From a virus: a stretch of DNA of 34,325 nt. The position numbers were made by a program, and so were the translations under genes. The notes below the pieces were generated by a model. That model saw only the letters and a program-made list of their open reading frames with translations. It was not told where the DNA came from and ran no database searches. The stretch lies in IMG/VR virus record IMGVR_UViG_3300005613_000227, one strand, 5' to 3'. Of this stretch, positions 8,340-26,992 are shown one piece after another. The first letter of the stretch is position 1, and the number at the start of each line of letters is the position of its first letter.

Positions 8340-8341
8340 GC

Positions 8342-8916: not shown

Positions 8917-8946
8917 TTTTTTTAATATTTTTTAATATACCCAAAT

Positions 8947-8975
8947 TTGACAAAATTAAACGATTAATCTTAAAT
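8947..8975 (+). promoter_or_regulatory. Sigma70-like promoter for 8983 (possibly a leaderless mRNA)
   Basis: TTGACA (8947..8952), a 17-nt spacer, then TTAAAT (8970..8975). The ATG lies 7 nt after the -10 box. Confidence 0.4.
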
Positions 8976-8982
8976 CCATTCT

Positions 8983-9519
8983 ATGGACAAAAAGATTATC
9001 GCTCTAACAGGAGCAAAGACTGTCGGAAAAACAACCATAGCAAAAGCAGCACAGGCTTGGGCTATTAATTCAAAGATCGTTTCGTTCGCTACTCCAATTA
9101 AAGAGATGCTTTGGCAGATGGGAGTTCCTTATGAATCTCTCAACGGCAACGATAAAGAAGTAATCATTGATCCACTCGGAAAGTCAGGAAGAGAATTAAT
9201 GCAGTCTCTTGGAACTGAGTGGGGAAGAAAAACCATCAACGAACATATTTGGGTTTTCGCTATGCAGAAACAAATCGAGAGAATGTCCGAAGAGATTATT
9301 ATTATTGATGACTTGAGATTTCCTAATGAAGCAAATTGGGTTTTAGTAAATGATGGAATAATAATTGAACTGAAAAGAGATGGCATCGAATGCAACGACA
9401 ACCACTCAAGCGAGCAACCACTCCCTAAACAATTTATCACACAATCAATCGACACAACCGATCTCGAAGATGGGATCAACAAGGTCATTGATGAAATTGA
9501 ACAAATGTTCTATTATTAG
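8983..9519 (+). CDS. Deoxynucleoside monophosphate kinase-like P-loop protein
   Basis: P-loop GAKTVGKTT. Also FATPIKEML, GRELMQSLGTEWGR and IIIDDLRFPNEA, a layout typical of phage dNMP kinases. Confidence 0.6.
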   Translation: MDKKIIALTGAKTVGKTTIAKAAQAWAINSKIVSFATPIKEMLWQMGVPYESLNGNDKEVIIDPLGKSGRELMQSLGTEWGRKTINEHIWVFAMQKQIERMSEEIIIIDDLRFPNEANWVLVNDGIIIELKRDGIECNDNHSSEQPLPKQFITQSIDTTDLEDGINKVIDEIEQMFYY

Positions 9520-9775: not shown

Positions 9776-9780
9776 AAAAA

Positions 9781-9843
9781 GTTTAAAAAAGTTTAACTAG
9801 AGGCTTGACTCATTTGGGTTAAGCCTTTTTATTCAACTTATAA
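9781..9843 (+). promoter_or_regulatory. Early promoter cassette (tandem GTTTAAA/GTTTAAC boxes, TTGACT, TTATAA) overlapping a terminator hairpin
   Basis: GTTTAAA at 9781 and GTTTAAC at 9791 (10-bp spacing), TTGACT at 9805..9810, TTATAA at 9838..9843. A hairpin at 9801..9826 is followed by a T-run. Confidence 0.35.
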
Positions 9844-9852: not shown

Positions 9853-9861
9853 TTAACCTTA
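9853..9861 (+). promoter_or_regulatory. TTAACCTTA leader box (gene 9872)
   Basis: Exact 9-mer, 10 nt upstream of the ATG. Confidence 0.5.
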
Positions 9862-9871: not shown

Positions 9872-10348
9872 ATGAAAAAATCAGAAATCTTAGAAAACCT
9901 CTCAGAAAACTTCTACTACCAACTTAAAGATATCATCGACAGTATTAACTTTCAGTTGATGTTAAACAATAGCGAAACGCTACACAATGTTTCACTTACA
10001 AAACAAAACTGCACAAAGCACAAACGCTTCACAAATGAAGTAAAAGAATTAGAAAGAATCTCCAAAAAACTTGCAGACTTTGCGAGGTTTGAATGTTCTT
10101 TGAATTTCTTACTTACATTTGATGATTTATATTTCGTAGAAGTCACACTCGATTGGGATGGAAATTTAGGAATCACTTATGCAGGTTGCCATTACGATCT
10201 TATGGTTGGTCACAGTAAATTCGGAAAACAATTTGTTAAGGATTACTCAGATTGGGAAAAAGCAATCTCAGGCATCGCATCAGATGACTACGGATTCCAA
10301 TCAGACAAGGACATCCAATGGGAAGCCTTAAAGTCTAAAGTCGCTTAA
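9872..10348 (+). CDS. Hypothetical early protein (158 aa)
   Basis: ORF behind a promoter cassette and leader box. No motif recognised. Confidence 0.6.
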   Translation: MKKSEILENLSENFYYQLKDIIDSINFQLMLNNSETLHNVSLTKQNCTKHKRFTNEVKELERISKKLADFARFECSLNFLLTFDDLYFVEVTLDWDGNLGITYAGCHYDLMVGHSKFGKQFVKDYSDWEKAISGIASDDYGFQSDKDIQWEALKSKVA

Positions 10349-13890: not shown

Positions 13891-13912
13891 AAACTATTAA
13901 TCAACAACTACT

Positions 13913-15910
13913 ATGGGAACAAGCGAAAGAACAAGCGAACAAAAATCAATTGGATTTGGGACTCGAAGAATCTCCATCGTTGAACAAGCGAGGAAAGTCG
14001 AAACCAAAAACTACGAATTAAAAACAGTCCTTAAATGGATTCGAGAAGGCAAAGGAAAGTTTGCCGAAAATGTTAAAGAAGTCAGGAAGGCAATCAAAGA
14101 AGGAGACAAAGACAAGGCGAGCCAAGCAAAGCTCAACTTGCCTGCAGCTATGTTCTCAGGAACATTCTCCAAGCGAAGCTCAAAGGAATTAACCGAACAT
14201 TCAGGAATCCTTTGCTTAGACTTTGATCACTTAGACAATCCTCAAAAAGCCGTTGATGATATGAGATATGATCCTCATATTATTGCAGGCTTTGTCTCTC
14301 CATCAGGAACAGGTTGCAAATGCTTAATCGCTATCCCAAAAGATTCTGAAAACCATCGAGAAGCCTTCCTGAGTGCGTCAGCTTATATTAAGACAGTTTA
14401 TGGAATAGAAGCTGACGAAAGTGGGAAGGATGTCTCAAGGCTCTGCTTCCTGTCTTACGATCCTCAACTTCATTATTGCGATGATGCAGTTGAGCTTCCT
14501 GTTGCAATGCCAAGAGAACCTGAACCAATTCAAAGAGGCGAAGGCGAGCGAGTAGGAGACAAGTATAACCAAGCTCCTGACGCAAGAGATCGCTCTGCGA
14601 CAATACTTAGGAAACTAGGTTGGCAAATCGGCAGAGGCGATGCTGAGAAGACTTATTGCACAAGACCGAACAAGGACAGAGGAATCTCAGGCACTCTTTG
14701 GAGCAATGGTTCGTTCTATTGCTTCACAGATAATGCAACTCCCTTGGATGCTTCTACTTCTTATTCTCCCTTTGCTCTTTATTCCATTATCGAACACAAC
14801 GGAAACTTCAAGGAGGCTTGCAAAGATTTAGCCTCTCAGGGCTTCGGAGATGCTCCGAGTGTAAGTGGTCTAGATAGATATGGAAAGACTCCTGAAGCGA
14901 AATCTGAAGCCGTAGAAGAACAAAGAGAAGAAGTTGCTTCTGCTCTTCCGATATGGACTTCGGCTTCTGAGATTCCTGAAGACCTGAACAAGCGAATAAC
15001 AATGCGTTATCCTGTGTTGATTGATGGCTTAGTCCACAGAGGGACAAAGGTTATCCTTGGAGGAGGCTCAAAGTCTTACAAAACTTGGACGCTCCTGAAT
15101 ATGGCAATCGCAGTTGCAACAGGTCAGAAGTGGTTCGGAAGAGAAACTGTCTCAACCGACCAAGATGTTATCTTTATTAATTTCGAGGTTGCTCACGAGT
15201 TCTTCCTTCAGCGTGTCAGAACAGTTTGCAAGGCTATGAATACTGAGCCTCCAAAGAATCTCAAGATATGGTCACTTAGAGGAATCTCAAATGACTTGAG
15301 TGTTATCCTGAAAGCCTTAGACGAAAGACTCGACAACGGAGCTTCTCTAATTGTTATCGATCCAATTTATAAAGGACTAGCAGGAAGAGACGAAAACTCG
15401 GCAGGCGATATGGGACAACTAATGAATGAAGTCGAAGCGATTGTTGAGAAGACAGGAGCAGCAGTTGCATTTGCAGCACACTACTCCAAAGGCAACCAAG
15501 CAGACAAAGACCCATTGGATCGAGTTTCAGGTTCAGGAGTGTTTGCTCGTGATCCTGATACAATTCTCGGACTGACTGCTCACGAAGAACAGAATTGTTT
15601 TTCAGTTCATTCTGCTCTCCGAAACTTTGCAGGAGTTGAACCTTTTGTTGTCGAGTGGGACTTTCCTTTGTTTAGTATTCGAGAAGACTTGGATGCAAAC
15701 CGACTCAAGAAACCAAATCAAAAAGTCACAGGAAGTCAGGTCATCGATATTATTTCCGAAGCAATGCCGACAGGAATAAGAAAAGCAGAATTGGTTGATC
15801 GTTGCAAAGAGAGATTCTCAATCGGTAAATCGACAGTTTATTCTCAGGTCAAATCTTTAGTCTTATCAGGAAAGGTAACAGAGACGGCAGGAAACTTATT
15901 TACAAAGTGA
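13913..15910 (+). CDS. Primase-helicase: VirE-N/BT4734-like primase domain fused to a RepA/DnaB-like (AAA_25-type) ATPase, with a C-terminal wHTH-like tail
   Basis: LPAAMFSGTF..HSGILCLDFDHL..SPSGTGCKCLIAIP..SRLCFLSYDP. Walker A GGGSKSYKT, Walker B LIVIDPIYK, then AAHYSKG and SGSGVFARDPD. Confidence 0.8.
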   Translation: MGTSERTSEQKSIGFGTRRISIVEQARKVETKNYELKTVLKWIREGKGKFAENVKEVRKAIKEGDKDKASQAKLNLPAAMFSGTFSKRSSKELTEHSGILCLDFDHLDNPQKAVDDMRYDPHIIAGFVSPSGTGCKCLIAIPKDSENHREAFLSASAYIKTVYGIEADESGKDVSRLCFLSYDPQLHYCDDAVELPVAMPREPEPIQRGEGERVGDKYNQAPDARDRSATILRKLGWQIGRGDAEKTYCTRPNKDRGISGTLWSNGSFYCFTDNATPLDASTSYSPFALYSIIEHNGNFKEACKDLASQGFGDAPSVSGLDRYGKTPEAKSEAVEEQREEVASALPIWTSASEIPEDLNKRITMRYPVLIDGLVHRGTKVILGGGSKSYKTWTLLNMAIAVATGQKWFGRETVSTDQDVIFINFEVAHEFFLQRVRTVCKAMNTEPPKNLKIWSLRGISNDLSVILKALDERLDNGASLIVIDPIYKGLAGRDENSAGDMGQLMNEVEAIVEKTGAAVAFAAHYSKGNQADKDPLDRVSGSGVFARDPDTILGLTAHEEQNCFSVHSALRNFAGVEPFVVEWDFPLFSIREDLDANRLKKPNQKVTGSQVIDIISEAMPTGIRKAELVDRCKERFSIGKSTVYSQVKSLVLSGKVTETAGNLFTK

Positions 15911-15952: not shown

Positions 15953-16063
15953 ATGAGTAATACTATCAAACCAAACTCGCTAAGATATGAGAATCATTTA
16001 AAGCGACAAAAACGAAAGAAACTAATAAAGATATTCTTTCCATTCCTAGCAAAAGCCTCTTAA
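15953..16063 (+). CDS. Possible 36-aa peptide in a stand-alone mini transcription unit (could instead be non-coding)
   Basis: MSNTIKPNSLRYENHLKRQKRKKLIKIFFPFLAKAS. TTGACT at 15911 lies upstream and a terminator overlaps the stop. Confidence 0.2.
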   Translation: MSNTIKPNSLRYENHLKRQKRKKLIKIFFPFLAKAS

Positions 16064-16078
16064 TTGAGGTTTTTTTTT
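16053..16078 (+). terminator. Rho-independent terminator
   Basis: Stem AAGCCTC/GAGGTTT, then a T9 run. Confidence 0.55.
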
Positions 16079-16118
16079 CGTCCTGTAGGGTGCTTAAATA
16101 AAGGGATTAATAAAAAAA

Positions 16119-16174
16119 GTTAAATAAAGTTAAATATTTATTTGACATCTAATAAGCTATTTCGTAACTTATAA
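16119..16174 (+). promoter_or_regulatory. Early promoter cassette
   Basis: GTTAAAT at 16119 and 16129 (10-bp spacing), TTGACA at 16142..16147, TAACTTATAA at 16165..16174. Confidence 0.4.
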
Positions 16175-16186: not shown

Positions 16187-16195
16187 TTAACCTTA
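16187..16195 (+). promoter_or_regulatory. TTAACCTTA leader box (gene 16208)
   Basis: Exact 9-mer, 12 nt upstream of the ATG. Confidence 0.5.
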
Positions 16196-16207
16196 ATAAA
16201 AACACTT

Positions 16208-16522
16208 ATGAAAAACTTATCACAAATCGAATTAACTAACGAAAAACAAATCGGCTCACTATTAACAAAAAAAATGGAGTGGGTTATCGCCAAGCATATC
16301 AAGACAGGTAGATATAACCTAATGGAAGTTTTCTTTGATGGACAATTCAGAGGAGGTGCTTGGAGATATGCACTTAACAAAGGTAAGGATGGCTTACTAA
16401 GAAGAAGCGAAAAAGACAATGAGTGTCACCACGCTAAAAAACGCTCTTTAGAAAAGTATGAGTTTGTAAAAACTGTAAATATGAAATGGATAAACGAATT
16501 TAAATCAGCATCTATTGCTTAA
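16208..16522 (+). CDS. Hypothetical early protein (104 aa)
   Basis: AT-rich ORF behind a promoter cassette and leader. Confidence 0.6.
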   Translation: MKNLSQIELTNEKQIGSLLTKKMEWVIAKHIKTGRYNLMEVFFDGQFRGGAWRYALNKGKDGLLRRSEKDNECHHAKKRSLEKYEFVKTVNMKWINEFKSASIA

Positions 16523-16535
16523 ACTTTAATCAACA

Positions 16536-16544
16536 TTAACCTTA
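16536..16544 (+). promoter_or_regulatory. TTAACCTTA leader box (gene 16562)
   Basis: Part of the 17-mer AATCAACATTAACCTTA, in an intra-operon gap. Confidence 0.5.
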
Positions 16545-16561
16545 ATAAATTATATAACACT

Positions 16562-16999
16562 ATGGAAACAATCGTAACAAAACCAATCATCACTTCCAAC
16601 CTTGGAACAACAAGCGAAGTCTGCACTTTCGTTTTACCATCAGAGGGAACTTATTACTTAGCAGGAACAGTTCTTTTGACAGTCGAATATCATCAAATGG
16701 GAGAAGACTACACTCAATCCAAAATGACTATCACAGAGATCAACGACAAGTCAGGAGATGTAACAACCTATGATGACATTGATGACATCCGAACAATCTT
16801 AATCAATGCTTATTCAGGAGGACAACTCAACTCAAGAACAACTCAGGTTAAAAGAGAGTTTTGGTTGGAGTTCCCTAAAGACAGTTTATTCAACTACCAC
16901 AAAGGAAACTCAGTCTGCGAAAAATTTACTCTGATTGAGTGGGTTAAAGAAAAGATAAAGGAGAAAGCCAAAAGAAAGGAATTAGAATTTTCGTTATAA
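16562..16999 (+). CDS. Hypothetical early protein (145 aa)
   Basis: ORF with leader box. No motif recognised. Confidence 0.6.
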   Translation: METIVTKPIITSNLGTTSEVCTFVLPSEGTYYLAGTVLLTVEYHQMGEDYTQSKMTITEINDKSGDVTTYDDIDDIRTILINAYSGGQLNSRTTQVKREFWLEFPKDSLFNYHKGNSVCEKFTLIEWVKEKIKEKAKRKELEFSL

Positions 17000-17024
17000 A
17001 ATAGGGTTAATAACACAAAAAAGG

Positions 17025-17051
17025 GCATCTTGAAAAAGATGCTTTTTTTTT
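17025..17051 (+). terminator. Rho-independent terminator
   Basis: Stem GCATCTT/AAGATGC, GAAA loop, T9 run. Confidence 0.7.
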
Positions 17052-17062
17052 ACTTTTTTTTA

Positions 17063-17103
17063 ATTTAGGACTTGCAATTCGTTAAACTTGGTTTAACTTA
17101 ATA
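17063..17103 (+). promoter_or_regulatory. Early promoter cassette (24/25 identical to 28417..28441)
   Basis: ATTTAGGACTTGCAATTCGTTAAAC. TTGCAA at 17072..17077, GTTAAAC at 17081, GTTTAAC at 17091, TTAATA at 17098. Two phased T-tracts lie upstream. Confidence 0.45.
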
Positions 17104-17116
17104 ATCATAATCAACA

Positions 17117-17125
17117 TTAACCTTA
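17117..17125 (+). promoter_or_regulatory. TTAACCTTA leader box overlapping the ATG of gene 17125
   Basis: Part of the 17-mer AATCAACATTAACCTTA. The usual AAAAACACTATG tail reads AAAAACACTATC here and is now coding. Confidence 0.45.
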
Positions 17126-17370
17126 TGAAAAACACTATCAAAATTACAAAACATAAAAATTTCCACGGCTACAATGCATCAGTATCTAATGGCAAGCAAT
17201 ACTACATTGATTTTAACCACGAAGCAGAAAGAGATTCAGCTTGGTGCTTATTCGAGTGTACAGACGAACAAGTAAGAGACGGCTATGAGTTTAATGGCTT
17301 TGCATTAACTAACGCAAGCACCAAGAGAGAGTTAGTAGAGTGCATCAAATATTGGAACAACATAGACTAA
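17125..17370 (+). CDS. Hypothetical early protein (81 aa)
   Basis: ORF behind a promoter cassette. Confidence 0.55.
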   Translation: MKNTIKITKHKNFHGYNASVSNGKQYYIDFNHEAERDSAWCLFECTDEQVRDGYEFNGFALTNASTKRELVECIKYWNNID

Positions 17371-17379
17371 GATTTAATT

Positions 17380-17883
17380 ATGTCACACGCAAAAACAGTT
17401 TTAAATTCAGCTTGGTTGGGAAAAGAGTTTGGTCAGGAACTCGCAACAAAGTGGGGATATAATTTATCCGAACTACCAAAGGGCAAGAGAGGAAAATGGA
17501 AGGGCTACATCAAAGCGAACTTACATTGGGAAAAAGCAACTGTTGGTGGTTGGATGAATACTCTTCTAAATGTTTTTGACGCACACCAAGACTTGGGCAA
17601 AAAAATCAGCAACATCGTTTATCCAAATGAAATCTTGTGGTCTTGCATAGTTGATCAATACTCAGGAGAAATCCTTGGCTTTAAAGCACACGCAAAAATG
17701 TTTCAAGGCATCGAGTTAGACATCCAAAGAATTTACACTTGTAACCACAACAAGGAAAACAGAATATATGGATATGATGATTCAGTCTCAAGATTCGACA
17801 GTATAAGAGCGAGGCTAATTACCGATGACGAAACTCTTGCGAACTGCTACGATGATTATTGTAAAAGATATTTAACCAACTAA
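17380..17883 (+). CDS. Hypothetical early protein (167 aa)
   Basis: ORF. No motif recognised. Confidence 0.6.
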   Translation: MSHAKTVLNSAWLGKEFGQELATKWGYNLSELPKGKRGKWKGYIKANLHWEKATVGGWMNTLLNVFDAHQDLGKKISNIVYPNEILWSCIVDQYSGEILGFKAHAKMFQGIELDIQRIYTCNHNKENRIYGYDDSVSRFDSIRARLITDDETLANCYDDYCKRYLTN

Positions 17884-17892
17884 TTAACCTTA
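17884..17892 (+). promoter_or_regulatory. TTAACCTTA leader box (gene 17907)
   Basis: Exact 9-mer, 14 nt upstream of the ATG, in an intra-operon gap. Confidence 0.5.
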
Positions 17893-17906
17893 AAAATAAA
17901 AACACT

Positions 17907-18173
17907 ATGGAAAACTATTACGCAAAAGCTAACGCAATTAACGAAGCCTTCGGACTTCCTGAGTGGAATGAATATGACACTCTCAAAGTAAAAGGAGAAC
18001 TTATTAAAACTTATTATTTACGCTCTCGATGGGCAATGATCGAAGCCTATGAGAAAGGATTTCTTGTCTATAATTGCGTTGTCGGAACTAAACATTATTG
18101 CGAAACTTGGAACAAGGCAAAAGAATTGAGGCAACAACTCTCTGATAGATATACTGCTATTGAAAGATTTTAG
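17907..18173 (+). CDS. Hypothetical early protein (88 aa)
   Basis: ORF with leader box. Confidence 0.55.
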   Translation: MENYYAKANAINEAFGLPEWNEYDTLKVKGELIKTYYLRSRWAMIEAYEKGFLVYNCVVGTKHYCETWNKAKELRQQLSDRYTAIERF

Positions 18174-18202
18174 TGAAATAAGGTTAAATAAATACAAACA
18201 AA

Positions 18203-18228
18203 AGACTCTCTTCGGAGGGTCTTTTTTT
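18203..18228 (+). terminator. Rho-independent terminator
   Basis: Stem AGACTCTC/GAGGGTCT, TTCG loop, T7 run. Confidence 0.7.
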
Positions 18229-18229: not shown

Positions 18230-18476
18230 TTTCCAAAGTCGTTGGAAATTGCTTGGAAATGGCTATCCTCGAAAAAGGGCATTTTCCAATGCCTTGGAAA
18301 TTTGTAAGTTTACCCAATTGCAAGGACTTAGAGTTAAATTTCCAATGCTTTTCCAAGCGTTTTGGAAATTTCTTCCAACCTATATAGTAATATGGAAGAA
18401 TATTCCGAGGAACTTGTTTCCACCGACTTCAAAATCAGTCGGAGGAAACAGTTCCAAGATTCCAAGCTTTTGGAAG
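18230..18476. repeat. Iteron-like array of TTGGAAA / TTTCCAA boxes (candidate origin or protein-binding array)
   Basis: Full 7-mers start at 18230(R), 18242(F), 18253(F), 18283(R), 18294(F), 18339(R), 18350(R) and 18362(F). TTCCAA/TTGGAA partial copies start at 18373, 18452, 18460 and 18470. Neighbouring boxes are 11-12 bp apart. Confidence 0.75.
18416..18449. repeat. Inverted repeat / hairpin inside the array
   Basis: GTTTCCACCGACT, an 8-nt loop, then AGTCGGAGGAAAC (13-bp arms with 1 mismatch). No T-run follows. Confidence 0.6.
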
Positions 18477-20287: not shown

Positions 20288-21076
20288 ATGTCAACACGAA
20301 TGAACATAAACGCTCAGGGCTTCAATAATATGATAAGAGCATTGAGCAAAAAGACAGGAGCATCTTATAAAGATGTTATTCGAGGAGTTACATCTTCAGT
20401 CCTGACAAGATCAGCACAATTAACAAAAGGTTCTTCAGCTAAGAAGATCACAGAAGATGTAAATCGGATGCTTCGCAAACCTTACAAGACAAGAGACGGA
20501 GATTTGATTGCAGTCGCAAAGGATGGTCAGGTTTGGTATAATGGTTCAGGTTGGCAGAAAGACAGATGGATCAAAGTCAATGGAGACGGAAGATTAAAGA
20601 ATGTCGGAAAGACAGTTTTGAGAACAGGAAGACAAGCAGGTCAACAAGCCACTATTTCATCTCAGCTAAGAGCGAGAATCAATAAGGCAGTCAGAGAAGC
20701 GAAGGAAACAAAGACTCAACAATTAAAATATAAGAAGGCTCGGATTCACGCAGGCAAAAAATCTTTTCTTGAAATATTAAAGAAGCTCAGGATTCCAATC
20801 GCCAACACAAGAGGAATCGGAAAAGCAATGAAAGCAATTACTGATCCTGAACTTGGAAGGGCAGTTCAGGGCTTCCAAAGTAAATCTTCAAAAACAGACT
20901 ATGAGATTACAATTAAATCACACGCTCAATCTGCATTGAATCCTCACTCAGGAGGAATCTTTGCTTTCTCAAGAGCGTTGAATGGTAACATCAAAGCATT
21001 TGAAAAAGCTGCCGAAAAAGATTTGGAAACCTACGCTAAACAATTTGCTTTAAAGAATGGCTTCATTGTCCGATGA
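20288..21076 (+). CDS. Basic hypothetical protein (262 aa) between terS and terL
   Basis: Lys/Arg-rich ORF that overlaps the terL start by 20 nt. Confidence 0.55.
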   Translation: MSTRMNINAQGFNNMIRALSKKTGASYKDVIRGVTSSVLTRSAQLTKGSSAKKITEDVNRMLRKPYKTRDGDLIAVAKDGQVWYNGSGWQKDRWIKVNGDGRLKNVGKTVLRTGRQAGQQATISSQLRARINKAVREAKETKTQQLKYKKARIHAGKKSFLEILKKLRIPIANTRGIGKAMKAITDPELGRAVQGFQSKSSKTDYEITIKSHAQSALNPHSGGIFAFSRALNGNIKAFEKAAEKDLETYAKQFALKNGFIVR

Positions 21077-22868
21077 ATTGGCGAGACTATTCGCTCCTAG
21101 AAAACTCACTTCTCCTGTCGAGTGGGCTTATGAAAACTGTGTCCTGAGGGCTAACATCTCAGAACTGTCAGGAGCGTTAAAAATATTTCCTTACGCTGAA
21201 GAACCTTTAAACGCTTTGGTTGATCCGATGGTCAACAAAGTGACTCTCTGTTGGGGATCGCAAAGTTCAAAGACAACGACAATGTATGCAGGCGTTGCTT
21301 ATCTCTTGTCGGAGTTTCCTAAAGATACTCTTTGGATTATGCCTTCGGCTGAGAATGCGAGAAACTTTTCAAAGGGAAGGTGGCTTCCCTTCGTTGAAGA
21401 TTGCAAACCTTTGATGGATCAATGTCCGATCTCTGCTTCTTCAGGGAAGGTTGATACTGATAAGATTACTAATATGAGACAGGAGTTCCTGAACTGTGTC
21501 CTGACTTTTGCAGGAGCAGGAAGCGAGAACAATGTTAAGTCTGCTCCTGTCGCTTACTTGGTATTAGATGAGATTGATGAGATTGATCCTGACATAAGAC
21601 TCGCAGCACTCGAACGGATTAAGGGAAGGCGAGAATATAAGATTATTCAAACTTCAACTCCGAAGGAAGAGAAGGGAGGAATATGGGAAGAATATATTTA
21701 CGGAGATCAAAGAAAATATTTTATGCCTTGTCCTGAATGCGAAGAGATGATCGAGTTCCAATGGAGACAGAAAGACAAGGAAGGAAAGATGCGATATGGA
21801 ATCGGATTTGATGAAGACTCAAAGATGGATGACGGCTCTTATGATTTTATAAAGGTTGCATCCTCTGCTCACTATCGTTGCCAAAATTGCGACTTCAAGA
21901 TTCTCGATGCTCACAAACCGACAATGATAAAGAATGGAGAGTGGAGACAAATGAATCCTAACGCTCCTTCAGGTCATAGGAGTTATCATTTAAATTCTTT
22001 ATATTCTCCTGCAATGACATTCGCTGATTTGATTGTCGCTTGGCTTCAGGTCAGTTCAAGTATTTATGGATTGAAGAAGTTTGTTCAGGGAAACTTGGCA
22101 GAGGCTTGGAAGGAAGATTGGGTTAATCAGGATGAGAACGAAGCCAATGTTTTAGAATCTAATTATGAAAGAGGAGAACTAAAAGGAGACTTTAGAATCT
22201 TGGCAGTCGATACTCAAACCGATCACTTCCGATTTATTGTTCGAGGATTTGAATCGAGTGGCGAAAGTTATTTAATTGATTTCGGAAGCGTGGCTTCATT
22301 TGTTGACTTGGATAAGATATTCGAGGACAACAAGTGTCACAAGGCAATCATTGACTGTGCAGGAGACCGAACTCAGGAGGTTTATGAAGAAGTATTCAAG
22401 AGAAGAACTCATTGGTTCGGCTCAAGAGGTTGGAAAACAATGGCAGAACCTTATCGTTTGCAACAAAAAGACCCATTCACAGGAGACAACAAGGGAAGAG
22501 CAGGCAGAGGAAAGTTCCTTTATTTACATATTGATAAGAATATTTGGGAATCTGAGATTGCAAAACTCCGATCTCAGCAGTTGTCAGGCTTCTACACTTT
22601 CGCAGACACTCCAAAAGAATACTATGATCAGTTGTTTGCAGTCTATTGGGCGAAGGAAACTGACAGAAGTGGACACATTAAGACAGTCAGGAAGATGAAA
22701 AGGAGTCGAGGAGACCACTATTTTGACTGCGAATGTATGGCAAGGGCGTTAAGTAAGTTTGTGGGAATAGCGAGAGTTGATAGAATGAACGCTCAACCGA
22801 TGGGAGAACAACAACAAAGAAAGCCGAAGAGACCAAGGACTCGACAAACTTCTGAAAGTTGGTGGTGA
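21057..22868 (+). CDS. terL: Terminase large subunit, lambda GpA family
   Basis: Walker A-like WGSQSSKTTT and Walker B AYLVLDEIDE. Zinc-ribbon CPECEEM...CQNC, characteristic of GpA-type terminases. Confidence 0.9.
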   Translation: MASLSDELARLFAPRKLTSPVEWAYENCVLRANISELSGALKIFPYAEEPLNALVDPMVNKVTLCWGSQSSKTTTMYAGVAYLLSEFPKDTLWIMPSAENARNFSKGRWLPFVEDCKPLMDQCPISASSGKVDTDKITNMRQEFLNCVLTFAGAGSENNVKSAPVAYLVLDEIDEIDPDIRLAALERIKGRREYKIIQTSTPKEEKGGIWEEYIYGDQRKYFMPCPECEEMIEFQWRQKDKEGKMRYGIGFDEDSKMDDGSYDFIKVASSAHYRCQNCDFKILDAHKPTMIKNGEWRQMNPNAPSGHRSYHLNSLYSPAMTFADLIVAWLQVSSSIYGLKKFVQGNLAEAWKEDWVNQDENEANVLESNYERGELKGDFRILAVDTQTDHFRFIVRGFESSGESYLIDFGSVASFVDLDKIFEDNKCHKAIIDCAGDRTQEVYEEVFKRRTHWFGSRGWKTMAEPYRLQQKDPFTGDNKGRAGRGKFLYLHIDKNIWESEIAKLRSQQLSGFYTFADTPKEYYDQLFAVYWAKETDRSGHIKTVRKMKRSRGDHYFDCECMARALSKFVGIARVDRMNAQPMGEQQQRKPKRPRTRQTSESWW

Positions 22869-22960
22869 CAAATTTGACAAGTTGCCTATTTTGCCTTTTA
22901 TTTTATTTATTATCTACTTCTTTCGTAATATATATAGCAACTCATATTGTGGTCAGTATG

Positions 22961-22972
22961 TTATAAGGTTAA
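22961..22972 (+). promoter_or_regulatory. Inverted copy of the early-leader box (TTATAAGGTTAA) in the terL 3' region
   Basis: Perfect reverse complement of TTAACCTTATAA, which is found in the leaders at 8647, 8851 and 28471. It lies 5 nt upstream of the terminator stem. Confidence 0.4.
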
Positions 22973-22976
22973 AAGG

Positions 22977-23017
22977 AAAGTCTCTTCGGTTTTGGTAGTT
23001 CCGAAGAGACTTTTTTT
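22977..23017 (+). terminator. Strong rho-independent terminator between terL and the head genes
   Basis: Perfect 13-bp stem AAAGTCTCTTCGG/CCGAAGAGACTTT, followed by a T7 run. Confidence 0.8.
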
Positions 23018-23045: not shown

Positions 23046-23288
23046 ATGGCATCGACAACTCCACTAGCAACACTTGTTCAAATTAGAGACAAACTTCTAA
23101 CTGCTTATTTAAAATTAGCAGAAGAGGGAGTTTCAAGTTATTCAATCGGAGATCAAACTTTTACTTTAAAAGACACAGGAAACATTTTAAACGAAATCGA
23201 GAGATTAGATAGGTTGATAGCCTTGAAAGATAGAACTCTCGGAGGAGGAGGACGAAACAGAATAACATTAAAGAACTTCGATGGCTAA
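23046..23288 (+). CDS. gpW-like head-tail joining protein
   Basis: 80 aa, positioned between terminase A and portal B as in lambda. Helical LLTAYLKLAEEG..IGDQTFTLKD..ILNEIERLDRLI pattern. Confidence 0.5.
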   Translation: MASTTPLATLVQIRDKLLTAYLKLAEEGVSSYSIGDQTFTLKDTGNILNEIERLDRLIALKDRTLGGGGRNRITLKNFDG

Positions 23289-24735
23289 GAAAAAGAAACC
23301 TTCAAGATTAGGATTTGCAACCAAGCAATTCCTGAAAGCATTCAGAGGATATGATGCAATAAAGAACACTCGCTATCGTGCGAGAAGAGGCTATGATGCT
23401 ATTCGATCCGAAGAGATTGAGTTAAGTAATTACGACAGAGATAAATTAATCTCTGCTGCTTTAGAATTTAGAAGAAACAATCCTGTCGTTGCTTCAATGT
23501 CTCGATTGAGAAAAGCCGACATTGTTGGAAGAGGAATTATTCCACAAGCGAACACAGGAGATGAAGCTCTCGATTCCAAGATTGAAGAGGAGTGGGCAGA
23601 GTTCAGTCACGATCCTGACATTACAGGTCAGTTTGATATGAGAGAGATTCAACAACAAATGGTTGATTCTCTTTTATTCTACGGAGACTGTGGGTTAGTT
23701 GTATTAGATGGAAAGGTTCAATTCATTGACGGCTCTCGAATCGGTAATCCAAAAGGACAAGCAACAGGATCAGAGAAAGACAACTTTCAAAACGGAGTTG
23801 AGATCAACGAAGTTGGAAAGCCTATCAACTATTCTATCGGTAATCGAGTAAATGGAAACCTAAAAGATTATAGATTAATATCAGCTAAAGACTTTATTCC
23901 TTTCTTTAGAAAGATTCGTCCTGTTCAATATCGAGGCATTCCTGAAATAGCAACGATTCTAAACACTCTCCAAGATTGTGATGAATACGATAGAATTGAA
24001 ATGATCTCAGCTAAGGTTGCTGCTTCATTATCGGTTGCAGTTAAGAGACAAAACTCTTATGAGTTTGAATTGCAAAATAGATTGAGTTCAGATGAGCAAG
24101 ATGAGATTGGGGGATTAGAAACTTTCGAGACAGGAAGATTTCATTACTTAGAACCTGACGAAGATGTCAGCGTTATAAGTTCAAACGGCAGACCGAATGT
24201 CGATGGAGTCGAGTGGGTTTCTTACTTGCTTCGTAAAGTAGGAAGTGCAGTCGGCATTCCTTTAGAATTTTTATTAATGGAGATCGGAGGAAGTTCTTTC
24301 TCTGCATCTCAGGGAGTCGTTCTTCAATATCAACAAACAGTTGAGAGTTATCAAACTGATTTGATTAGAGCGATGCAAACACTTTACAAAAGATGGTTGT
24401 CTCAAAAGATAGCCGATGATTCAATCTCAATTCCTTCAGGAGTGGAGAATCCTTTCAAGGTTCGTTGGCAAAGACCTGCATTCAGGTGGATCAATCGAGC
24501 AGCACAAGTAAAAGCTGACTTGGATTATTTCCGAGTCGGTGCAATGAGCTTGGACGATATAACTGCTCCTTTCGGATATACTGCCGAAGATGTTATGGTT
24601 CGCAAAGCTCAGAATATTACAAAAGCAAAACGAATCGCTGAACAGAACGGATTAGATTGGAAAGATTTAATTAATCCATTCCCAACATCACTATCAGGAA
24701 ATTATTCCGAAGTCATTGACGATGCCTCTGCCTAA
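23281..24735 (+). CDS. Portal protein, lambda gpB family
   Basis: 484 aa. RSEEIELSNYDRDKLISAALEFRRNNPVVASM...VGRGI...EEEWAEF...MVDSLLFYGDCG matches the lambda-type portal N-terminal pattern. Synteny also supports the call. Confidence 0.85.
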   Translation: MAKKKKPSRLGFATKQFLKAFRGYDAIKNTRYRARRGYDAIRSEEIELSNYDRDKLISAALEFRRNNPVVASMSRLRKADIVGRGIIPQANTGDEALDSKIEEEWAEFSHDPDITGQFDMREIQQQMVDSLLFYGDCGLVVLDGKVQFIDGSRIGNPKGQATGSEKDNFQNGVEINEVGKPINYSIGNRVNGNLKDYRLISAKDFIPFFRKIRPVQYRGIPEIATILNTLQDCDEYDRIEMISAKVAASLSVAVKRQNSYEFELQNRLSSDEQDEIGGLETFETGRFHYLEPDEDVSVISSNGRPNVDGVEWVSYLLRKVGSAVGIPLEFLLMEIGGSSFSASQGVVLQYQQTVESYQTDLIRAMQTLYKRWLSQKIADDSISIPSGVENPFKVRWQRPAFRWINRAAQVKADLDYFRVGAMSLDDITAPFGYTAEDVMVRKAQNITKAKRIAEQNGLDWKDLINPFPTSLSGNYSEVIDDASA

Positions 24736-26992
24736 ACCAACAAATAGCGAAAAGCAACCTGAGTTCGTAAATCGTTGTATGAGCGATGAAGAAACAGTCA
24801 AAGAGTTTCCTGATGAGAAACAAAGAGTTGCCGTTTGCATTGGTATTTATAAAAGAGAAACTCAACTGAACGAAGGTTCAAATGATAATGTTAGCGAGAC
24901 AGTTGAGAAGGGATTAAAGAAGAAACTCGAAGATCATAGAGAAGCAGTTGGCAAAGACCCAAAGAAGCAAACGACTTTAAGGAAACTCAAGATTGTTTAC
25001 AATCGAGGGATCGGAGCTTACAGAACAAATCCAAGTTCGGTCAGACCTTCTGTTGGTTCTCCTGAACAATGGGCGAACGCTAGAGTCAATTCATTCCTTT
25101 ACGCTTTGAGAAACCTTCGTTACAGAAGTGGGAAACACGATACCGATTTACTTCCAAAGGAACATCCAATCAGGAAGAACATAGAGAAAGATAAAGCAAG
25201 TTTAGATGAACACAGGAGATATGAAGACGGAGAGATTATTCCTTCTGCTCTTCCTCCTGCTTATAGAAAGAGCAGAAAAGATGGAGAAACAAAAGGACAA
25301 GCGTGCATTAATTGCAAATTTTACAAAGAGGATCAGAAGGATCATCGTTTTTATTGCACTAAATTTGAAGCTCCTGTTCGTCCTCAATATTGGTGCAAGG
25401 CTTGGAAAGCAAAAGGCGAAGCATTAGCAGAAACCTACAATGATTATCCTGAGTCAGCTTCAAACAATGCAAAGAGAGCTTTGAAATACAAAGCCGAGAA
25501 TCCTGACAACAAGTGTGGCACTCAGGTTGGTTGGGCAAGAGCTAATCAATTAGCTAAGAAAGAAAGAATTTCAAGAGACACGATTGCTCGAATGGCATCA
25601 TTCAAAAGACATCAACAACATAAAGATGTTCCCTACGATGAAGGTTGTGGAGGATTGATGTGGGATGCTTGGGGAGGAACTTCAGGAGTCGAGTGGGCGA
25701 TCAGAAAACTTAAACAAATTGACAAGAAGGCGAATAGTAAAATGAGTAGCAAACAATATGGATTTTCAGCGTTAAACATTTCCGAGTCTAAAATTGACAA
25801 GGATTCAGGTAAGATGTTTGGAGTCTCTCTCATAAGCGTAGGCGAAGCACTAGGTCACGAATTGTTTGTCGATGACGATAGTCTCGACACAATCCTCCAA
25901 GCGATAGACGGAGAAAAGATTCCTGCTTACATCACTCACAGAGGAGCTTTATTTGAAGACCGACTAACTAGAGAGATCGGAATGTTTACAAACTTTAGAA
26001 CCGAAGGCGACAGACTGATGGCAGACTTTGAAGCCTTCGATTCATTTAGAGAAGACGATGCTCGCAAATACAATCGATTATTCGAGATGGCAGAAAAGAT
26101 TCCTGAGCGATTTGGATTAAGCATTGTATTCTCAGCAACTCAGGCTTGGGCAACTCCTGAAGGAGATGTTGAATTAGGAGCAAGACCTGACAACGCTTTA
26201 TTTGATTTCCCATCAATCAGGGTTGAAGAAGTTACTTCTGCTGACTTCGTTGACACTCCTGCAGCAAATCAAAAAGGACTTTTTTCAAAATTAGATATTA
26301 AACCAACTAGCAAAATGTTAAAATCAGAACTCATCGAAGCAAATGAAAAACTCTCTGCTGAGAACGAAGCTCTTAAAGCTAAGATCGAAGACCAAGAGTC
26401 TGTCGAACAAAAAGCATTAGAAGCTCAAGTCTCACAAGAAGAGGCACAGATTGAGTCAAGCAACGAAGTTCAAGAAGAAACTTCATCCGAAGAAATCCAA
26501 GAGTCTTTCAATAAAGACGAAGAGATGGCAGTCACAGACAATGAGAAAACTATCAACAAAGGTGGTTCTCAAGGTTTAGAAGGTCACGAAGATGAAGAGA
26601 AACTTGAAGAAGAAGAAGAAGCTCAAGAGGAAGAAGAAAGCCTTGAAGAGAAAGTTGCTTCGCTTGAATCTGTTATCGAAGACCTAAAGGCAAAACTCCA
26701 AGAGAAGGAAGACGAAATGTCTAAACTTCAGGAGGAACTTGAAGGTCACGAAGAAGAAGAAAAAGAAATGAAAGAAAAGCTCTCCAAGGTAACCGAAGAG
26801 AACTCAAAACTTTCTGCTCTTATCAAAGGAGCTAATCCTATTGAAGTAAGTAAAGAAGACGATTCAACTTGGTCTCCAAGTAAATCTCTTAAAGATCAAT
26901 TCATTAAGGATTATGCTAAAGAAAATAATATTTCAGAATTTACTGCGACTCTTCGCTTAGGCAAAGAGAAGCCTGAACTTTTCAAACTATAA
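24722..26992 (+). CDS. Head maturation protease / scaffold polyprotein with N-terminal accessory modules
   Basis: The ATG at 24722 is preferred over the TTG at 24716. Modules in order: PEFVNRCMSDEETVKEFPDEKQRVAVC; VYNRGIGAYRTNPSSVRP..QWANARVNSFL; Cys4 CINC..C..WC; WARANQLAKKERISRDTIARMASFKRH..WGG; protease-like SLISVGEALGHELFVDDDSL...ITHRG; and an E/K-rich coiled coil at the C-terminus. Confidence 0.6.
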   Translation: MPLPKPTNSEKQPEFVNRCMSDEETVKEFPDEKQRVAVCIGIYKRETQLNEGSNDNVSETVEKGLKKKLEDHREAVGKDPKKQTTLRKLKIVYNRGIGAYRTNPSSVRPSVGSPEQWANARVNSFLYALRNLRYRSGKHDTDLLPKEHPIRKNIEKDKASLDEHRRYEDGEIIPSALPPAYRKSRKDGETKGQACINCKFYKEDQKDHRFYCTKFEAPVRPQYWCKAWKAKGEALAETYNDYPESASNNAKRALKYKAENPDNKCGTQVGWARANQLAKKERISRDTIARMASFKRHQQHKDVPYDEGCGGLMWDAWGGTSGVEWAIRKLKQIDKKANSKMSSKQYGFSALNISESKIDKDSGKMFGVSLISVGEALGHELFVDDDSLDTILQAIDGEKIPAYITHRGALFEDRLTREIGMFTNFRTEGDRLMADFEAFDSFREDDARKYNRLFEMAEKIPERFGLSIVFSATQAWATPEGDVELGARPDNALFDFPSIRVEEVTSADFVDTPAANQKGLFSKLDIKPTSKMLKSELIEANEKLSAENEALKAKIEDQESVEQKALEAQVSQEEAQIESSNEVQEETSSEEIQESFNKDEEMAVTDNEKTINKGGSQGLEGHEDEEKLEEEEEAQEEEESLEEKVASLESVIEDLKAKLQEKEDEMSKLQEELEGHEEEEKEMKEKLSKVTEENSKLSALIKGANPIEVSKEDDSTWSPSKSLKDQFIKDYAKENNISEFTATLRLGKEKPELFKL

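Follow-up and report, generated by a model that had tools for sequence, protein, structure and literature searches.

The window, meaning the whole 34,325-nt stretch of viral DNA analysed here (IMG/VR record IMGVR_UViG_3300005613_000227), represents a phage genome of 34.2 kb that encodes a tape measure protein together with a TerL and a portal that are both lambda-like, and in which no T4-like genes were found. The phage is marine. A 20-kb portion searched by megablast against 50,697 phage records gave no match, no exact copies of the window's proteins are on record, and tblastn with TerL, the major head protein, primase, portal and dNMP kinase returned matches of at most 42% identity, scattered over many host phyla. 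A TerL-profile scan of 185,579 species genomes produced one match only, at 22% identity, in a Lentisphaerae MAG. Neither tRNAs nor lysogeny genes were seen in the window, and Rfam gave no match in it.

Within this genome the 9-mer TTAACCTTA, hereafter the box, occurs in 11 exact copies over both strands, against 0.45 expected from dinucleotide shuffles (maximum in any shuffle, 3), so that the enrichment claimed in a preliminary description, which had expected less than about one copy, is borne out. Eight of the 11 stand in sense orientation less than 30 nt before a start codon, a zone that makes up 2.1% of position-and-strand space (binomial P ~5e-12). The copies in front of genes, together with one inside a gene, are as follows:

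9853 to 9861, plus strand: leader box before gene 9872-10348, downstream of TTGACT (~9820) and a tandem AAAGTTTAA pair
16187 to 16195, plus strand: leader box before gene 16208-16522, in the leader CATAATCAAAT-TTAACCTTA-ATAAAAACACTT-ATG, with a promoter-like TTGACA upstream at 16142
16536 to 16544, plus strand: leader box before gene 16562-16999, within a 39-nt intercistronic gap
17117 to 17125, plus strand: leader box before gene 17125-17370, overlapping the ATG, at the 3' end of cassette 17044-17143
17884 to 17892, plus strand: leader box before gene 17907-18173, within a 23-nt gap
28471 to 28479, plus strand: leader box before gene 28491-28970, part of cassette 28398-28497
8647 to 8655, minus strand: leader box before gene 8391-8633, within a 35-nt gap
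8851 to 8859, minus strand: leader box before gene 8669-8839, downstream of TTGCAA
28549 to 28557, plus strand: exact in-gene copy inside the coding sequence of gene 28491-28970, where it is read I-N-L-T

The box-to-ATG distances are, in the order listed, 10, 12, 17, -1 (overlap), 14 and 11 nt on the plus strand and 13 and 11 nt on the minus strand. On recheck all box coordinates given in the preliminary description proved correct, and so did its gap of 10-17 nt with 17117 as the exception and its 17-mer in three copies (AATCAACATTAACCTTA, at 8647 on the minus strand, 16536 and 17117). The in-gene copy at 28549 is probably due to chance or a relic and is left out of the system; the gene that holds it is a moron-like insertion between head genes. 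A shuffle comparison suggested at the same time came out positive for the exact 9-mer and negative for its one-mismatch variants (10 non-exact matches against ~10 expected); because these variants are not enriched, the box is either exact or absent.

The box lies as an invariant core within a 5' leader of ~30 nt that is transcribed, lacks G and has the consensus (C)ATAATCAAMW-TTAACCTTA-A-rich-ACAYT-ATG-(A/G)AA. The true repeat unit exceeds 9 nt: it is a leader of ~25-35 nt, extended at two sites to a 100-nt cassette; for example, the 25-nt stretch 16520-16544 is 96% identical to the minus-strand leader 8647-8671. Since boxes are found in intercistronic gaps of 23-39 nt, where their transcribed status is shown, as well as 37-42 nt downstream of -35-like hexamers, the earlier view that the box tracks translation starts rather than promoters is supported. 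Among metagenomic genomes the proposed search for related phages found the box kept in L002, L003/L020 and L125. The last was the only true relative to emerge from a 17-mer scan of viral contigs, which otherwise returned mostly single background matches, along with coding-sequence matches in an unrelated phage family.

All eight genes behind the box belong to one class of small, non-paralogous ORFans, and none of them matched a PHROG family. Paralogy as the source of the shared leaders was considered and rejected, as the genes are not paralogs; for the same reason, and given the lack of PHROG membership, the leader must be kept up independently of the genes. The core genes for the major head protein, portal, terminase (TerL) and primase carry no box. 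A Shine-Dalgarno (SD) core (GGAG, GAGG or AGGA, counted at -20 to -4 before the start) is present in 5 of the 47 genes of the genome. No box gene is among these five, in agreement with the preliminary description, which had seen no AGGAGG-type site before any box gene and SD sites in about four genes overall. The scarcity is genome-wide, however, rather than confined to box genes: 34 of the 39 non-box genes also lack an SD and start translation without one, which argues against the proposal that the box replaces the SD. Upstream G (-25 to -1) amounts to 10% against 20.7% genome-wide, and the translation initiation regions (TIRs) are A-rich (A = 45-55% throughout, 57% at -3). Because of these A-rich, G-poor TIRs and the 34 of 39 non-box genes, we regard SD absence as a property of the whole genome; other sublineages are likewise SD-poor. 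G makes up 0% of the box leaders between -30 and -4, so that they cannot self-fold and are accessible. A relaxed motif (A[AC]CT(T)A, G-free spacer, ATG) was found 13 times versus 1, an excess that was dropped as evidence because it is mainly due to all leaders being G-free in composition, which whole-genome shuffles leave uncontrolled.

SD-independent TIRs of Bacteroidia are A-rich, and there an A-run and A at -3 and -6 stimulate initiation (Baez 2019, PMC6847099). The phage TIRs show the same pattern: they lack both an SD and a G peak, are A-rich from -14 to -11, and have A at positions -3 and -6. The host may thus be a member of the Bacteroidota, to judge from the TIR pattern only.

Five cassettes flank the eight box genes. 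Those at 17044-17143 and 28398-28497 form a 100-nt repeat of 80% identity composed of terminator tail, promoter and leader: a hairpin with a T-run, followed by TTGCAA-N16/17-TAACTT, occupies 17017-17116, and the same arrangement recurs at 28398-28470. In five cassettes -35/-10-like elements lie 37-42 nt upstream of the box, and the cassettes also hold pairs of AAAGTTWAA, which are likely DNA sites. Minus-oriented cassettes occur at 8391-8859 of the window and in L169. A sigma-70 promoter scan of the window (39 hits versus 33.8 expected) was not enriched and did not pick up the box, and TAnnTTTG counts were modestly above those in shuffles. Gene content varies among the window, L002 and L003, and in L003 and L002 the same genes stand behind other partners. 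Homology between the window and these two relatives breaks directly after '...aatcaaca' at the box start, at the leader/ATG boundary, and directly before TAAGGTTAAataaata. Because homology breaks exactly there, box and anti-box (the complement described below) are parts of the regulatory frame rather than of the genes. The near-identity of the copies further suggests that the cassettes serve as crossover points for the swapping of accessory genes, much like the PeSLs of T4-type phages.

The anti-box, TAAGGTTAA, is the exact complement of the box. Two of the three remaining exact copies, and one copy with a single mismatch, read as TAAGGTTAA on the transcribed strand beside terminators, where they lie unpaired, 1-12 nt upstream of three terminator hairpins (P ~2e-5 for the terminator-side placement of the two exact anti-boxes):

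17002 to 17010, plus strand: anti-box TAGGGTTAA, one mismatch, 2 nt past the stop of gene 16562-16999 and 6 nt before terminator 17017-17050
17017 to 17050, plus strand: intrinsic terminator closing operon 16208-16999
18179 to 18187, plus strand: anti-box TAAGGTTAA, 5 nt past the stop of gene 17907-18173 and 12 nt before terminator 18200-18225
18200 to 18225, plus strand: intrinsic terminator closing operon 17125-18173
22941 to 22972, plus strand: anti-leader, an inverted copy of the whole leader in the gap between TerL and the next gene, with the core anti-box TAAGGTTAA at 22964-22972
22974 to 23017, plus strand: terminator hairpin directly 3' of the TerL-gap anti-box

The preliminary description placed the inverted copy at 22964 correctly but gave it no weight, and overlooked the one at 18179-18187; we find the inverted copies the most informative feature. 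Both operons thus carry boxes in front and a complement at the end. In operon 16208-16999 the boxes at 16187 and 16536 are followed by the anti-box at 17002, which makes the 3' UTR complementary to the TIRs; in operon 17125-18173 the anti-box at 18179 stands in the same relation to the boxes at 17117 and 17884. Intra-operon box/anti-box duplex energies are -9 to -13.5 kcal/mol. At the site equivalent to 17002, L003/L020 carry an exact TAAGGTTAA, and the 18179 anti-box is kept in L002 and L020 even with a different upstream gene. An anti-box ends only two of the five box-bearing transcription units; the terminators at 8349-8368 (minus strand), 16051-16074 and ~28990 are without one.

In the TerL gap the anti-box is predicted to be single-stranded between two hairpins in MFE, centroid and alignment folds (z = -3.65), and the longest stretch of the gap that four close relatives share without a change or an indel is GTTATAAGGTTAAAAG, the neighbouring 20 nt having 7 changes. 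The anti-box is invariant over this 16-mer and the rest of the inverted leader varies; a single-stranded seed 5' of a Rho-independent terminator is therefore more conserved here than its flanks. The stem at 22974-23017 carries compensatory changes in 8 relatives around an invariant loop, TTTNGGTAGTT. Among 11,318 plus-strand windows the TerL-gap segment is the top duplex partner of the 8 leaders (z = -5.5; duplexes of -10.7 to -20.4 kcal/mol), and the 17002 segment is also in the top dozen. After the TerL stop codon there is an invariant AA(A/T)TTGAC, and L003 and L005 there read TAAATTTG, the Bacteroidota -7 consensus; a clear sigma-70 -10 element is not present in the gap. A conserved minus-strand mini-ORF at the inverted copy at 22964 was rejected as an explanation, its ATG being ATT in L002 and its frame and length differing in L004.

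Across sublineages we found three box types: TTAACCTTA, AACCTA (L144 type) and CCTACTAAA (L175 type). In the L144 type, AACCTA stands in at least 8 leaders, and the sole plus-strand TAGGTT in 13.2 kb adjoins the operon terminator, where the TAGG core is kept in ~30 relatives. L144 has islands of 6 and 2 ORFan box genes, after TerL and after the major head gene. L144-type leaders carry small 5' hairpins. Strict base-by-base co-variation was sought in the L144 clade and not found: the outer anti-box bases vary (TAGGTT, TAGGAT, TAGGTA, TAGGTC) without clean compensatory leader changes, and only the TAGG/CCTA core is kept on both sides. L144-type self-pairing was no better than in shuffles (z = -0.9). 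In the L175 type, the exact complement TTTAGTAGG of the leader CCTACTAAA sits in a 12-nt loop of the operon terminator. This loop is present in L175/L177, L181 and L178, and the 9-nt complement within it is invariant though the stems have changed on both sides, differing by compensatory changes. Directly upstream lie AGTAGT repeats and, in L178, also TAGTAGGTT. In a duplex matrix, window leaders paired with window segments at -11.5 to -13.7 kcal/mol (z = -2.8 to -6.2) and with the L175 segment at -3.4 kcal/mol only, and L175 leaders paired with their own segment at -16.3 kcal/mol (z = -5.1). The core ACCT(T)A, A-run and CAC is kept across sublineages of 38-49% GC. At the level of sequence, complementarity is thus matched by lineage, with each sublineage keeping the complement of its own box at the operon terminator.

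We tentatively favour the interpretation, somewhat short of an even chance in our judgement, that RNA pairing between leader and anti-leader blocks the translation starts of the accessory-gene class. The box would be kept exact because it forms one half of a nucleic-acid duplex. Its complement would stay single-stranded at the terminator hairpins of the operons that carry the box, either beside a hairpin or within its loop, with a further copy in a putative small terminator-ended RNA region after the late gene TerL. The 3' anti-leader would pair with the leader box, sometimes as far as the AUG, either in cis, between the 5' and 3' UTRs, or in trans, with the terminator protecting a stable 3' fragment. 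The duplex would cover the region where ribosomes land on a TIR that has no SD and is otherwise unstructured, and translation (possibly stability) of the whole accessory class would be limited or switched off. Pairing in vivo, its repressive sign and its timing are what we infer. This fits the other role that had been suggested for the box, a handle for a post-transcriptional regulator. That the duplexes are short and AU-rich (9-12 bp) counts against pairing; moreover, the anti-leaders resemble inverted whole leaders, and inverted-cassette relics together with gene conversion could give part of the pattern.

A wider version is a possibility that we put forward with less confidence. Here an SD-less marine phage lineage would have its whole accessory set on one standard leader, controlled by terminator-embedded anti-leaders and the post-TerL small RNA region, with leader and anti-leader co-evolving (TTAACCTTA/TAAGGTTAA, AACCTA/TAGGTT, CCTACTAAA/loop TTTAGTAGG). 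If true, a captured gene dropped between box and anti-box would at once come under temporal RNA-based shut-off, and the frame would be a plug-in expression and silencing device for morons.

Other explanations have to be weighed against RNA pairing. Among these, the one that survives best, unlikely as we consider it, treats the box as a pure recombination linker within ordinary A-rich TIRs, in which the repeats come from the spread and homogenisation of cassettes and the anti-leaders are decaying inverted relics. Identity does extend far beyond 9 nt, one-mismatch variants are not enriched, as expected from copying rather than convergence, the gene contents of the window, L002 and L003 differ with breakpoints at box and anti-box, cassettes occur in both orientations, and PeSLs are a known precedent (PMC2839356, PMC4122927). 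Relics ought to lose similarity at an even rate, yet the TerL-gap 16-mer is invariant next to 7 changes in 20 nt, the L175-type loop complement is unchanged between altered stems, and three sublineages each retain their own box's complement at the operon end. The ACCT(T)A...CAC core also outlasts a divergence from 38% to 49% GC, which is longer than neutral homogenisation inside one genome would account for.

Slightly less probable still is an SD-independent enhancer, in which the ribosome would read the box through 16S rRNA pairing or S1 and initiation would be boosted, the inverted copies being incidental. The box occupies ~-27 to -11, the place of epsilon in the T7 gene 10 leader, and, as the preliminary description had it, is one position off T7 epsilon, UUAACUUUA, 8 of 9 bases matching. 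In SD-blind Bacteroidia initiation is stimulated by an A-run and by A at -3 and -6 (PMC6847099); the leader tail has both, and the core is retained over 38-49% GC. A general enhancer role is nevertheless hard to reconcile with the genes for the major head protein, portal, TerL and primase: since these essential and presumably most expressed genes have neither box nor SD, the box seems neither needed nor preferred for strong translation. Spacing of box to ATG is zero at 17117 and in L003, and T7 epsilon works with a strong SD, which is absent here. Moreover, the box differs among close sublineages, which is unexpected for a conserved ribosomal target but expected for a phage-encoded partner, and the matched complements at terminators are left unexplained.

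We think it improbable that the box is a double-stranded DNA site for a phage or host regulator, such as a roadblock repressor acting downstream of early promoters and at operon ends. A protein that reads the motif in either orientation would also explain the joint change of both copies among sublineages, as its specificity drifted; promoter-proximal copies keep a near-fixed 37-42 nt from the -35-like hexamer, and the AAAGTTWAA pairs show that other likely DNA sites exist in the cassettes. The box lacks dyad symmetry, however, all eight gene-proximal copies are sense with spacing tied to the ATG even far from promoters, and the inverted copies are confined to the transcribed strand, where each either directly precedes an RNA hairpin or sits in its loop. 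A search of the ORFs turned up no DNA-binding protein, which is weak evidence as most of them are unannotated. Finally, a -10/-7-like promoter element for a host or phage sigma, giving each small gene a leaderless or very short-leader transcript, would suit an asymmetric, orientation-specific motif 10-17 nt before the ATG of every gene of the class, internal ones included, yet it is very improbable, as box and ATG share bases at 17117 and in L003, so that transcripts starting past the box would lack the start codon, separate -35/-10-like elements stand upstream in five cassettes, the sigma-70 scan passed the box over, no RNA polymerase or sigma gene was detected in the window, and the terminator-side complements would make no sense.

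Little is known of how phages express, and later silence, their many small accessory genes, and least of all for phages of non-SD hosts such as the ecologically dominant marine Bacteroidota-like bacteria, whose initiation rules are only recent knowledge. If the RNA pairing is real, it would constitute a compact, directly testable RNA-only circuit with eight natural targets, three natural antisense sites and natural compensatory variants in sister lineages, it would explain the exact conservation of regulatory cassettes at mosaic junctions, and engineers of SD-blind bacteria would gain a portable SD-independent leader that comes with its matched off-switch. If it is not, PeSL-like modular shuffling is still documented outside the T4 group.

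Several known systems resemble parts of this arrangement. T4 RegA, a translational repressor, and RegB, an endoribonuclease, act at sites at the ribosome-binding sites of early genes and bring about class-wide post-transcriptional shut-off. The likeness lies in a class-specific sequence at the initiation region of many genes; in T4 it is phage proteins that recognise the sites, and RegB cleaves SD sequences at GGAG. No RegA- or RegB-like protein was identified in the window, and a nucleic-acid partner is favoured over such a protein because exact complements are present. The c4 RNA of P1/P7 and the CI RNA of P4 are small phage RNAs that shut early genes through short seeds against repeated leader or ribosome-binding-site complements. 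They are processed from, or encoded beside, their target operon and control that one operon for lysogenic immunity, whereas here the targets would be dispersed accessory genes and the antisense element is built in next to terminators or into their loops.

The T7 gene 10 leader epsilon, UUAACUUUA[A], is likewise a U/A/C-rich, G-free 9-mer in a phage 5' leader, ~10-20 nt upstream of a start codon, and UUAACCUUA matches it more closely than do the sublineage boxes AACCUA and CCUACUAAA. Epsilon works directly upstream of a strong SD (PMC9590205), whereas the box leaders are free of G in an SD-poor genome. It is also a single site before one very highly expressed late gene and has no matching complement at transcript 3' ends, in contrast to the box, which has one and heads eight small accessory genes, none major structural. 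With the Bacteroidia TIR (PMC6847099) the leaders share the missing G peak, an A-run at ~-14 to -5, frequent A at -3 and -6 and the depletion of G; that TIR is a degenerate compositional signal, whereas the box is an exact 9-mer limited to one gene class.

PeSLs are mobile promoter-early stem-loop cassettes of T4-type phages (Arbiol 2010, PMC2839356; Comeau 2014, PMC4122927). As in these, terminator hairpins and early-type promoters form composites around ORFans in plastic regions, sited exactly at the insertion or replacement junctions of close relatives. PeSLs belong to T4-type myoviruses and have been described as DNA-level recombination substrates rather than RNA pairing partners; the present genome is siphovirus-like, ~34.2 kb, with a probably non-enterobacterial host, and its unit extends through a leader with an invariant box, an anti-box framing the 3' side. 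Pairing of 5' and 3' UTRs at the TIR is known from bacteria in icaR of S. aureus (PMC3868564) and hbs of B. subtilis (PMC5737220), where, as in the sequence here, the ribosome-binding region of an mRNA has its complement in a short 3' UTR motif beside that mRNA's terminator. In icaR a 3' UTR anti-SD pairs with the SD, whereas here the target would be an SD-less box; and icaR and hbs are single host genes, whereas one phage anti-leader type could serve eight leaders, in cis or in trans.

The 9-mer TTAACCTTA (the box) occurs 11 times in the window against 0.45 expected, and eight of these copies read in the sense direction of a gene, the distance from their 3' end to its ATG being -1 to 17 nt. 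Start-proximal zones cover 2.1% of the sequence when the strands are counted separately, which gives P ~5e-12 for eight copies there. The excess and the position before start codons reported in the preliminary description are thus confirmed, and every coordinate it gave for the box was right, although its list overlooked one more inverted copy at 18179. When one-mismatch variants were counted as well, the exact 9-mer was in excess and the variants were at chance level; the box thus occurs in exact form or not at all. The eight box genes are small (56-159 aa); neither a PHROG family for them nor paralogy among them was found. The G-free stretch of ~30 nt around the box, the leader, has a consensus longer than 9 nt, (C)ATAATCAAMW-TTAACCTTA-(A-rich)-ACAYT-ATG-(A/G)AA. 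Leader copies at 8647-8671 (minus strand) and 16520-16544 share 96% identity over 25 nt, and a 100-nt repeat (17044-17143 and 28398-28497, 80% identity) comprises a terminator tail, a promoter-like element and the leader. Because they contain no G from -30 to -4, the box leaders are predicted to be unable to fold and to be fully accessible.

Two variations on this layout were seen. In gene 17125 (17125-17139) the shared leader's usual start position reads ATC, not ATG; an ATG made at the box edge (TTAACCTT-ATG) lengthens the ORF by 4 codons, and the former leader tail is now translated as MKNT, an arrangement kept in a metagenomic relative, L003 (6063-6077). A second shared leader, TTAACAACTAA(C/T)CTTTATT, which includes the box-like AACTAACCTTTA, is present in 2 copies (0.05 expected) at 2602-2620 and 4797-4815, ahead of two late tail-region genes (2624-4210 and 4820-5071).

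Three box copies sit in intercistronic gaps of 23-39 nt, with no space for a promoter. Five are found 37-42 nt downstream of a TTGACA/TTGCAA/TTGACT hexamer that is followed after 16-17 nt by a TAnnnT-like hexamer, a spacing that would put the promoter-proximal box near transcript positions +10 to +20. We infer that the box is part of the RNA. The ATG overlaps the box at 17117 and in L003, which excludes a transcript start downstream of the box for the gene at 17117 and makes it unlikely that the box is a promoter element. The narrow gaps bear out the earlier view that the box tracks translation starts rather than transcription starts. Separately, AAAGTTWAA occurs 10 times in the window (2.6 expected; sites at 9778-9796, 16116-16134, 8907-8919 and 28442-28450) in tandem pairs with a 10-bp spacing, which stand 10-25 nt ahead of the -35-like hexamers in accessory cassettes; cassettes of the L175 sublineage are likewise preceded by AAGTT(T)AAA repeats (10020-10050 in L175) and those of the L144 sublineage by AAGTGAA, and the motif is likely a UP-like element or a regulator site. 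At 18230-18368, where there is no convincing gene, eight TTGGAAA copies in both orientations fall within 140 bp (22 copies genome-wide, 13.3 expected); this iteron-like cluster, conserved in the relatives L002 and L003, is a candidate replication origin or packaging site.

A Shine-Dalgarno (SD) core at -20 to -4 was found in 5 of the 47 genes of the window, and no box gene is among them, as the preliminary description had claimed. G falls to 10% at -25 to -1 (20.7% genome-wide), and A makes up 45-55% across the translation initiation region (TIR) and 57% at -3. Such SD-poor, A-rich TIRs with little G upstream match the pattern described for the SD-blind Bacteroidia (PMC6847099). In the sister lineages, 0-26% of genes have an SD core. 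SD-lessness thus characterises the entire genome as well as its sister lineages, and the idea that the box replaces SD falls with it. The box is also absent before the major head, portal, terminase and primase genes, which argues that it is neither this phage's general route to translation start nor favoured for strong expression. The main assignable genes of the window are:

8983-9519, dNMP kinase
13913-15910, primase/helicase
21057-22868, large terminase (TerL), lambda-type
23281-24735, portal protein
27403-28323, major head protein
32244-33761, tape measure protein

A 756-aa protein encoded 3' of the portal gene (24722-26992) has weak Pfam matches to DUF5824 and a HiPIP iron-sulfur domain, and contains a long, acidic, GAAGAA-rich repeat region (26582-26776). 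Since bases 1-123 form a direct repeat of 100% identity with 34203-34325, the window is a complete, terminally redundant (or circularly assembled) genome of ~34.2 kb; its GC content is 38.5%. Relatives were found in marine viromes and metagenomes, with Line P/TARA-type metagenomes among the sources and one relative being a TARA contig. Nucleotide and translated searches of phage records found no close relative among cultured phages, and a TerL-profile scan found none in bacterial genomes.

Comparison with the relatives marks the cassettes as sites where genes are swapped. In L003 (95% TerL identity to the window), the homolog of gene 17125 stands behind another promoter cassette, with the homolog of gene 16562 coming next. 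The window's promoter cassette of 17125 is identical in L003 up to '...aatcaaca', after which come a degenerate box, ATAACATTA, an unrelated gene, and then TAAGGTTAAataaata with the same terminator as at 18200 of the window. In L002 the 16187 promoter and leader stand ahead of a different gene and the homolog of gene 17907 comes after another upstream gene, with homology beginning exactly at the box. Because homology to L003 and L002 breaks at the cassette edges, the regulatory frame is conserved and the genes inside are exchanged, as in the promoter-early stem-loops (PeSLs), mobile regulatory cassettes of T4-type phages (PMC2839356, PMC4122927). On these alignments, we regard it as shown that the leader belongs to PeSL-like cassettes located at mosaic junctions.

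Sequences complementary to the box (anti-boxes) occur beside terminators on the transcribed strand:

17002, plus strand, anti-box TAGGGTTAA (exact TAAGGTTAA in L003), 2 nt after a stop codon and 6 nt upstream of a terminator hairpin
18179, plus strand, anti-box TAAGGTTAA, 5 nt after a stop codon and 12 nt upstream of a terminator hairpin
22964, plus strand, anti-box TAAGGTTAA, 1 nt upstream of a terminator hairpin

Terminator-side placement of the two exact copies has P ~2e-5; none was found at the other four strong terminators of the window. The 22964 copy falls in the 177 nt that separate TerL from the next gene, where it forms the core of an inverted whole-leader copy of 32 nt that includes the start codon (72% match); it is predicted to be single-stranded between a small hairpin and the terminator (fold z = -3.65; the alignment fold agrees). 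When four close relatives are compared over the TerL gap, no ungapped invariant stretch is longer than GTTATAAGGTTAAAAG, and the 20 nt adjoining it have 7 changes. In a duplex scan of 11,318 plus-strand windows, with the region complementary to the minus-strand leaders set aside, the TerL-gap segment ranked first as a partner for the eight leaders (z = -5.5; -10.7 to -20.4 kcal/mol), and the 17002 segment was also in the top dozen.

Two further features touch on these sites. Plus-strand windows at 8122-8980 are by far the best duplex partners of the leaders (z about -10). On the plus strand no T-run comes after the hairpin at 8343-8368 (the bases there are GAACAAAC), so late tail-gene transcription could read into the convergent minus-strand accessory operon (8122-8980); such RNA, if made, would be the full complement of two box leaders and a partial one of the other six. 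The hairpin after TerL (22974-23017) keeps its stem via compensatory changes in 8 relatives, around an invariant loop, TTT(T/C/A)GGTAGTT, that resembles the anti-box-carrying loop of the L175 type. Two more invariant stretches in the relatives are AA(A/T)TTGAC, which directly follows the stop codon of TerL, and ATTGACA(A/G)A, 14 nt ahead of the start codon of gene 23046. By hand count, the loop and the primase TIR AACUACUAUG (~13903-13915) could form a putative duplex of 8 bp, one of them a G-U.

Two diverged sublineages allow a comparison of leaders and complements. The L144 type (72% TerL identity; 49.5% GC) has at least eight small genes with the leader ...(A)ACCTA-AAAAAA-CACGAC(T)-ATG. In L144 itself, the sole plus-strand TAGGTT in 13.2 kb directly adjoins the terminator closing the first accessory operon, and the 30 nt before that terminator hairpin read CAT-ACGTGT-aataaataaaa-TAGGTT, an inverted leader. 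Across ~30 L144-type relatives the TAGG core is kept at this spot, and no clean compensation in the leaders for the varying outer anti-box bases was found. Leaders of the L175 type (L175/L177, L181, L178) read AACCTACTAAAT(A/C)CTACTACT-ATG. There, ATAGTAGTAAAAATAGTAGT stands between the stop codon of the final accessory gene and a terminator whose 12-nt loop holds TTTAGTAGG, the exact complement of CCTACTAAA; its stems vary on both sides in three genomes (GCTCACATCC/GGATGTGAGC, TTCCACACCC/GGGTGTGGAA and TCCTCACCC/GGGTGGGGA), and L178 has an additional TAGTAGGTT adjoining the stem. In a duplex matrix, window leaders reached -11.5 to -13.7 kcal/mol (z = -2.8 to -6.2) on their own segments and -3.4 when matched with that of L175; the leaders of L175 preferred their own segment (-16.3 kcal/mol, z = -5.1), and L144-type self-pairing was weak (z = -0.9). 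We therefore regard two points as established at the sequence level, namely that a lineage-wide, G-free and presumably transcribed leader heads accessory genes, and that the complement of its core is maintained at operon ends and tracks each sublineage's leader.

In the sister lineages, a strong hairpin precedes the box of internal accessory genes by 2-10 nt; in many cases it has a UUCG loop and lacks a U-tail. A small stem-loop is present in promoter-proximal leaders, and its two arms seem to co-vary (GAAGCG/CGCTTC, GGGGCG/CGTCTC, ATCGGAAG/CTTCCGAT); these structures (L144 3595-3620 and 5570-5596; L009 ~7085-7110; L175 8509-8537) may be 5' stabilisers or processing sites. In L158 (3833-3839), L163 (3855-3862) and L164 (~3712-3720), whose operon-end motif is TAGGAT or TAGGTA, box-like motifs (ATCCTAA and AACCTTAA) immediately precede internal terminator-like hairpins; some L144-type genomes may hold a second box/anti-box pair inside the operon.

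What follows on function is drawn solely from sequence analysis. The leader and the anti-leader, its inverted copy, would pair as RNA, either in cis within one mRNA or in trans, by way of 3' fragments protected by a terminator and RNA from the TerL gap. Pairing would occlude the sole landing region of an SD-less TIR and switch the accessory class off, a reading we hold tentatively, at slightly short of an even chance. Gene conversion among cassettes, together with relics of inverted cassettes, can account for part of the pattern; we consider it unlikely, and it does not readily account for the uneven conservation in the TerL gap or for the invariant loop between co-varying stems. The enhancer proposed in the preliminary description agrees with the position of the box and its resemblance to the T7 epsilon element (PMC9590205), but conflicts with the gene class carrying the box, its variation between sublineages and the presence of complements, which leaves this explanation quite doubtful. 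A protein binding double-stranded DNA could account for motif and complement both being present, and we consider it improbable. A single-stranded-RNA-binding protein as reader of the box was rejected since it fails to explain the two together.

As far as we could find, the combination suggested here has not been described: a standard SD-less leader for an accessory class, with its own complement at terminators and in-step change across sublineages, in a phage of an apparently SD-poor marine host. Each ingredient has precedent in PeSLs, in 5'-3' UTR pairing and in phage antisense RNAs, P1 c4 and P4 CI being examples. The proposed pairing of leader and anti-leader within one mRNA would resemble icaR and hbs, in which the 5' and 3' UTRs of a single mRNA pair (PMC3868564, PMC5737220).
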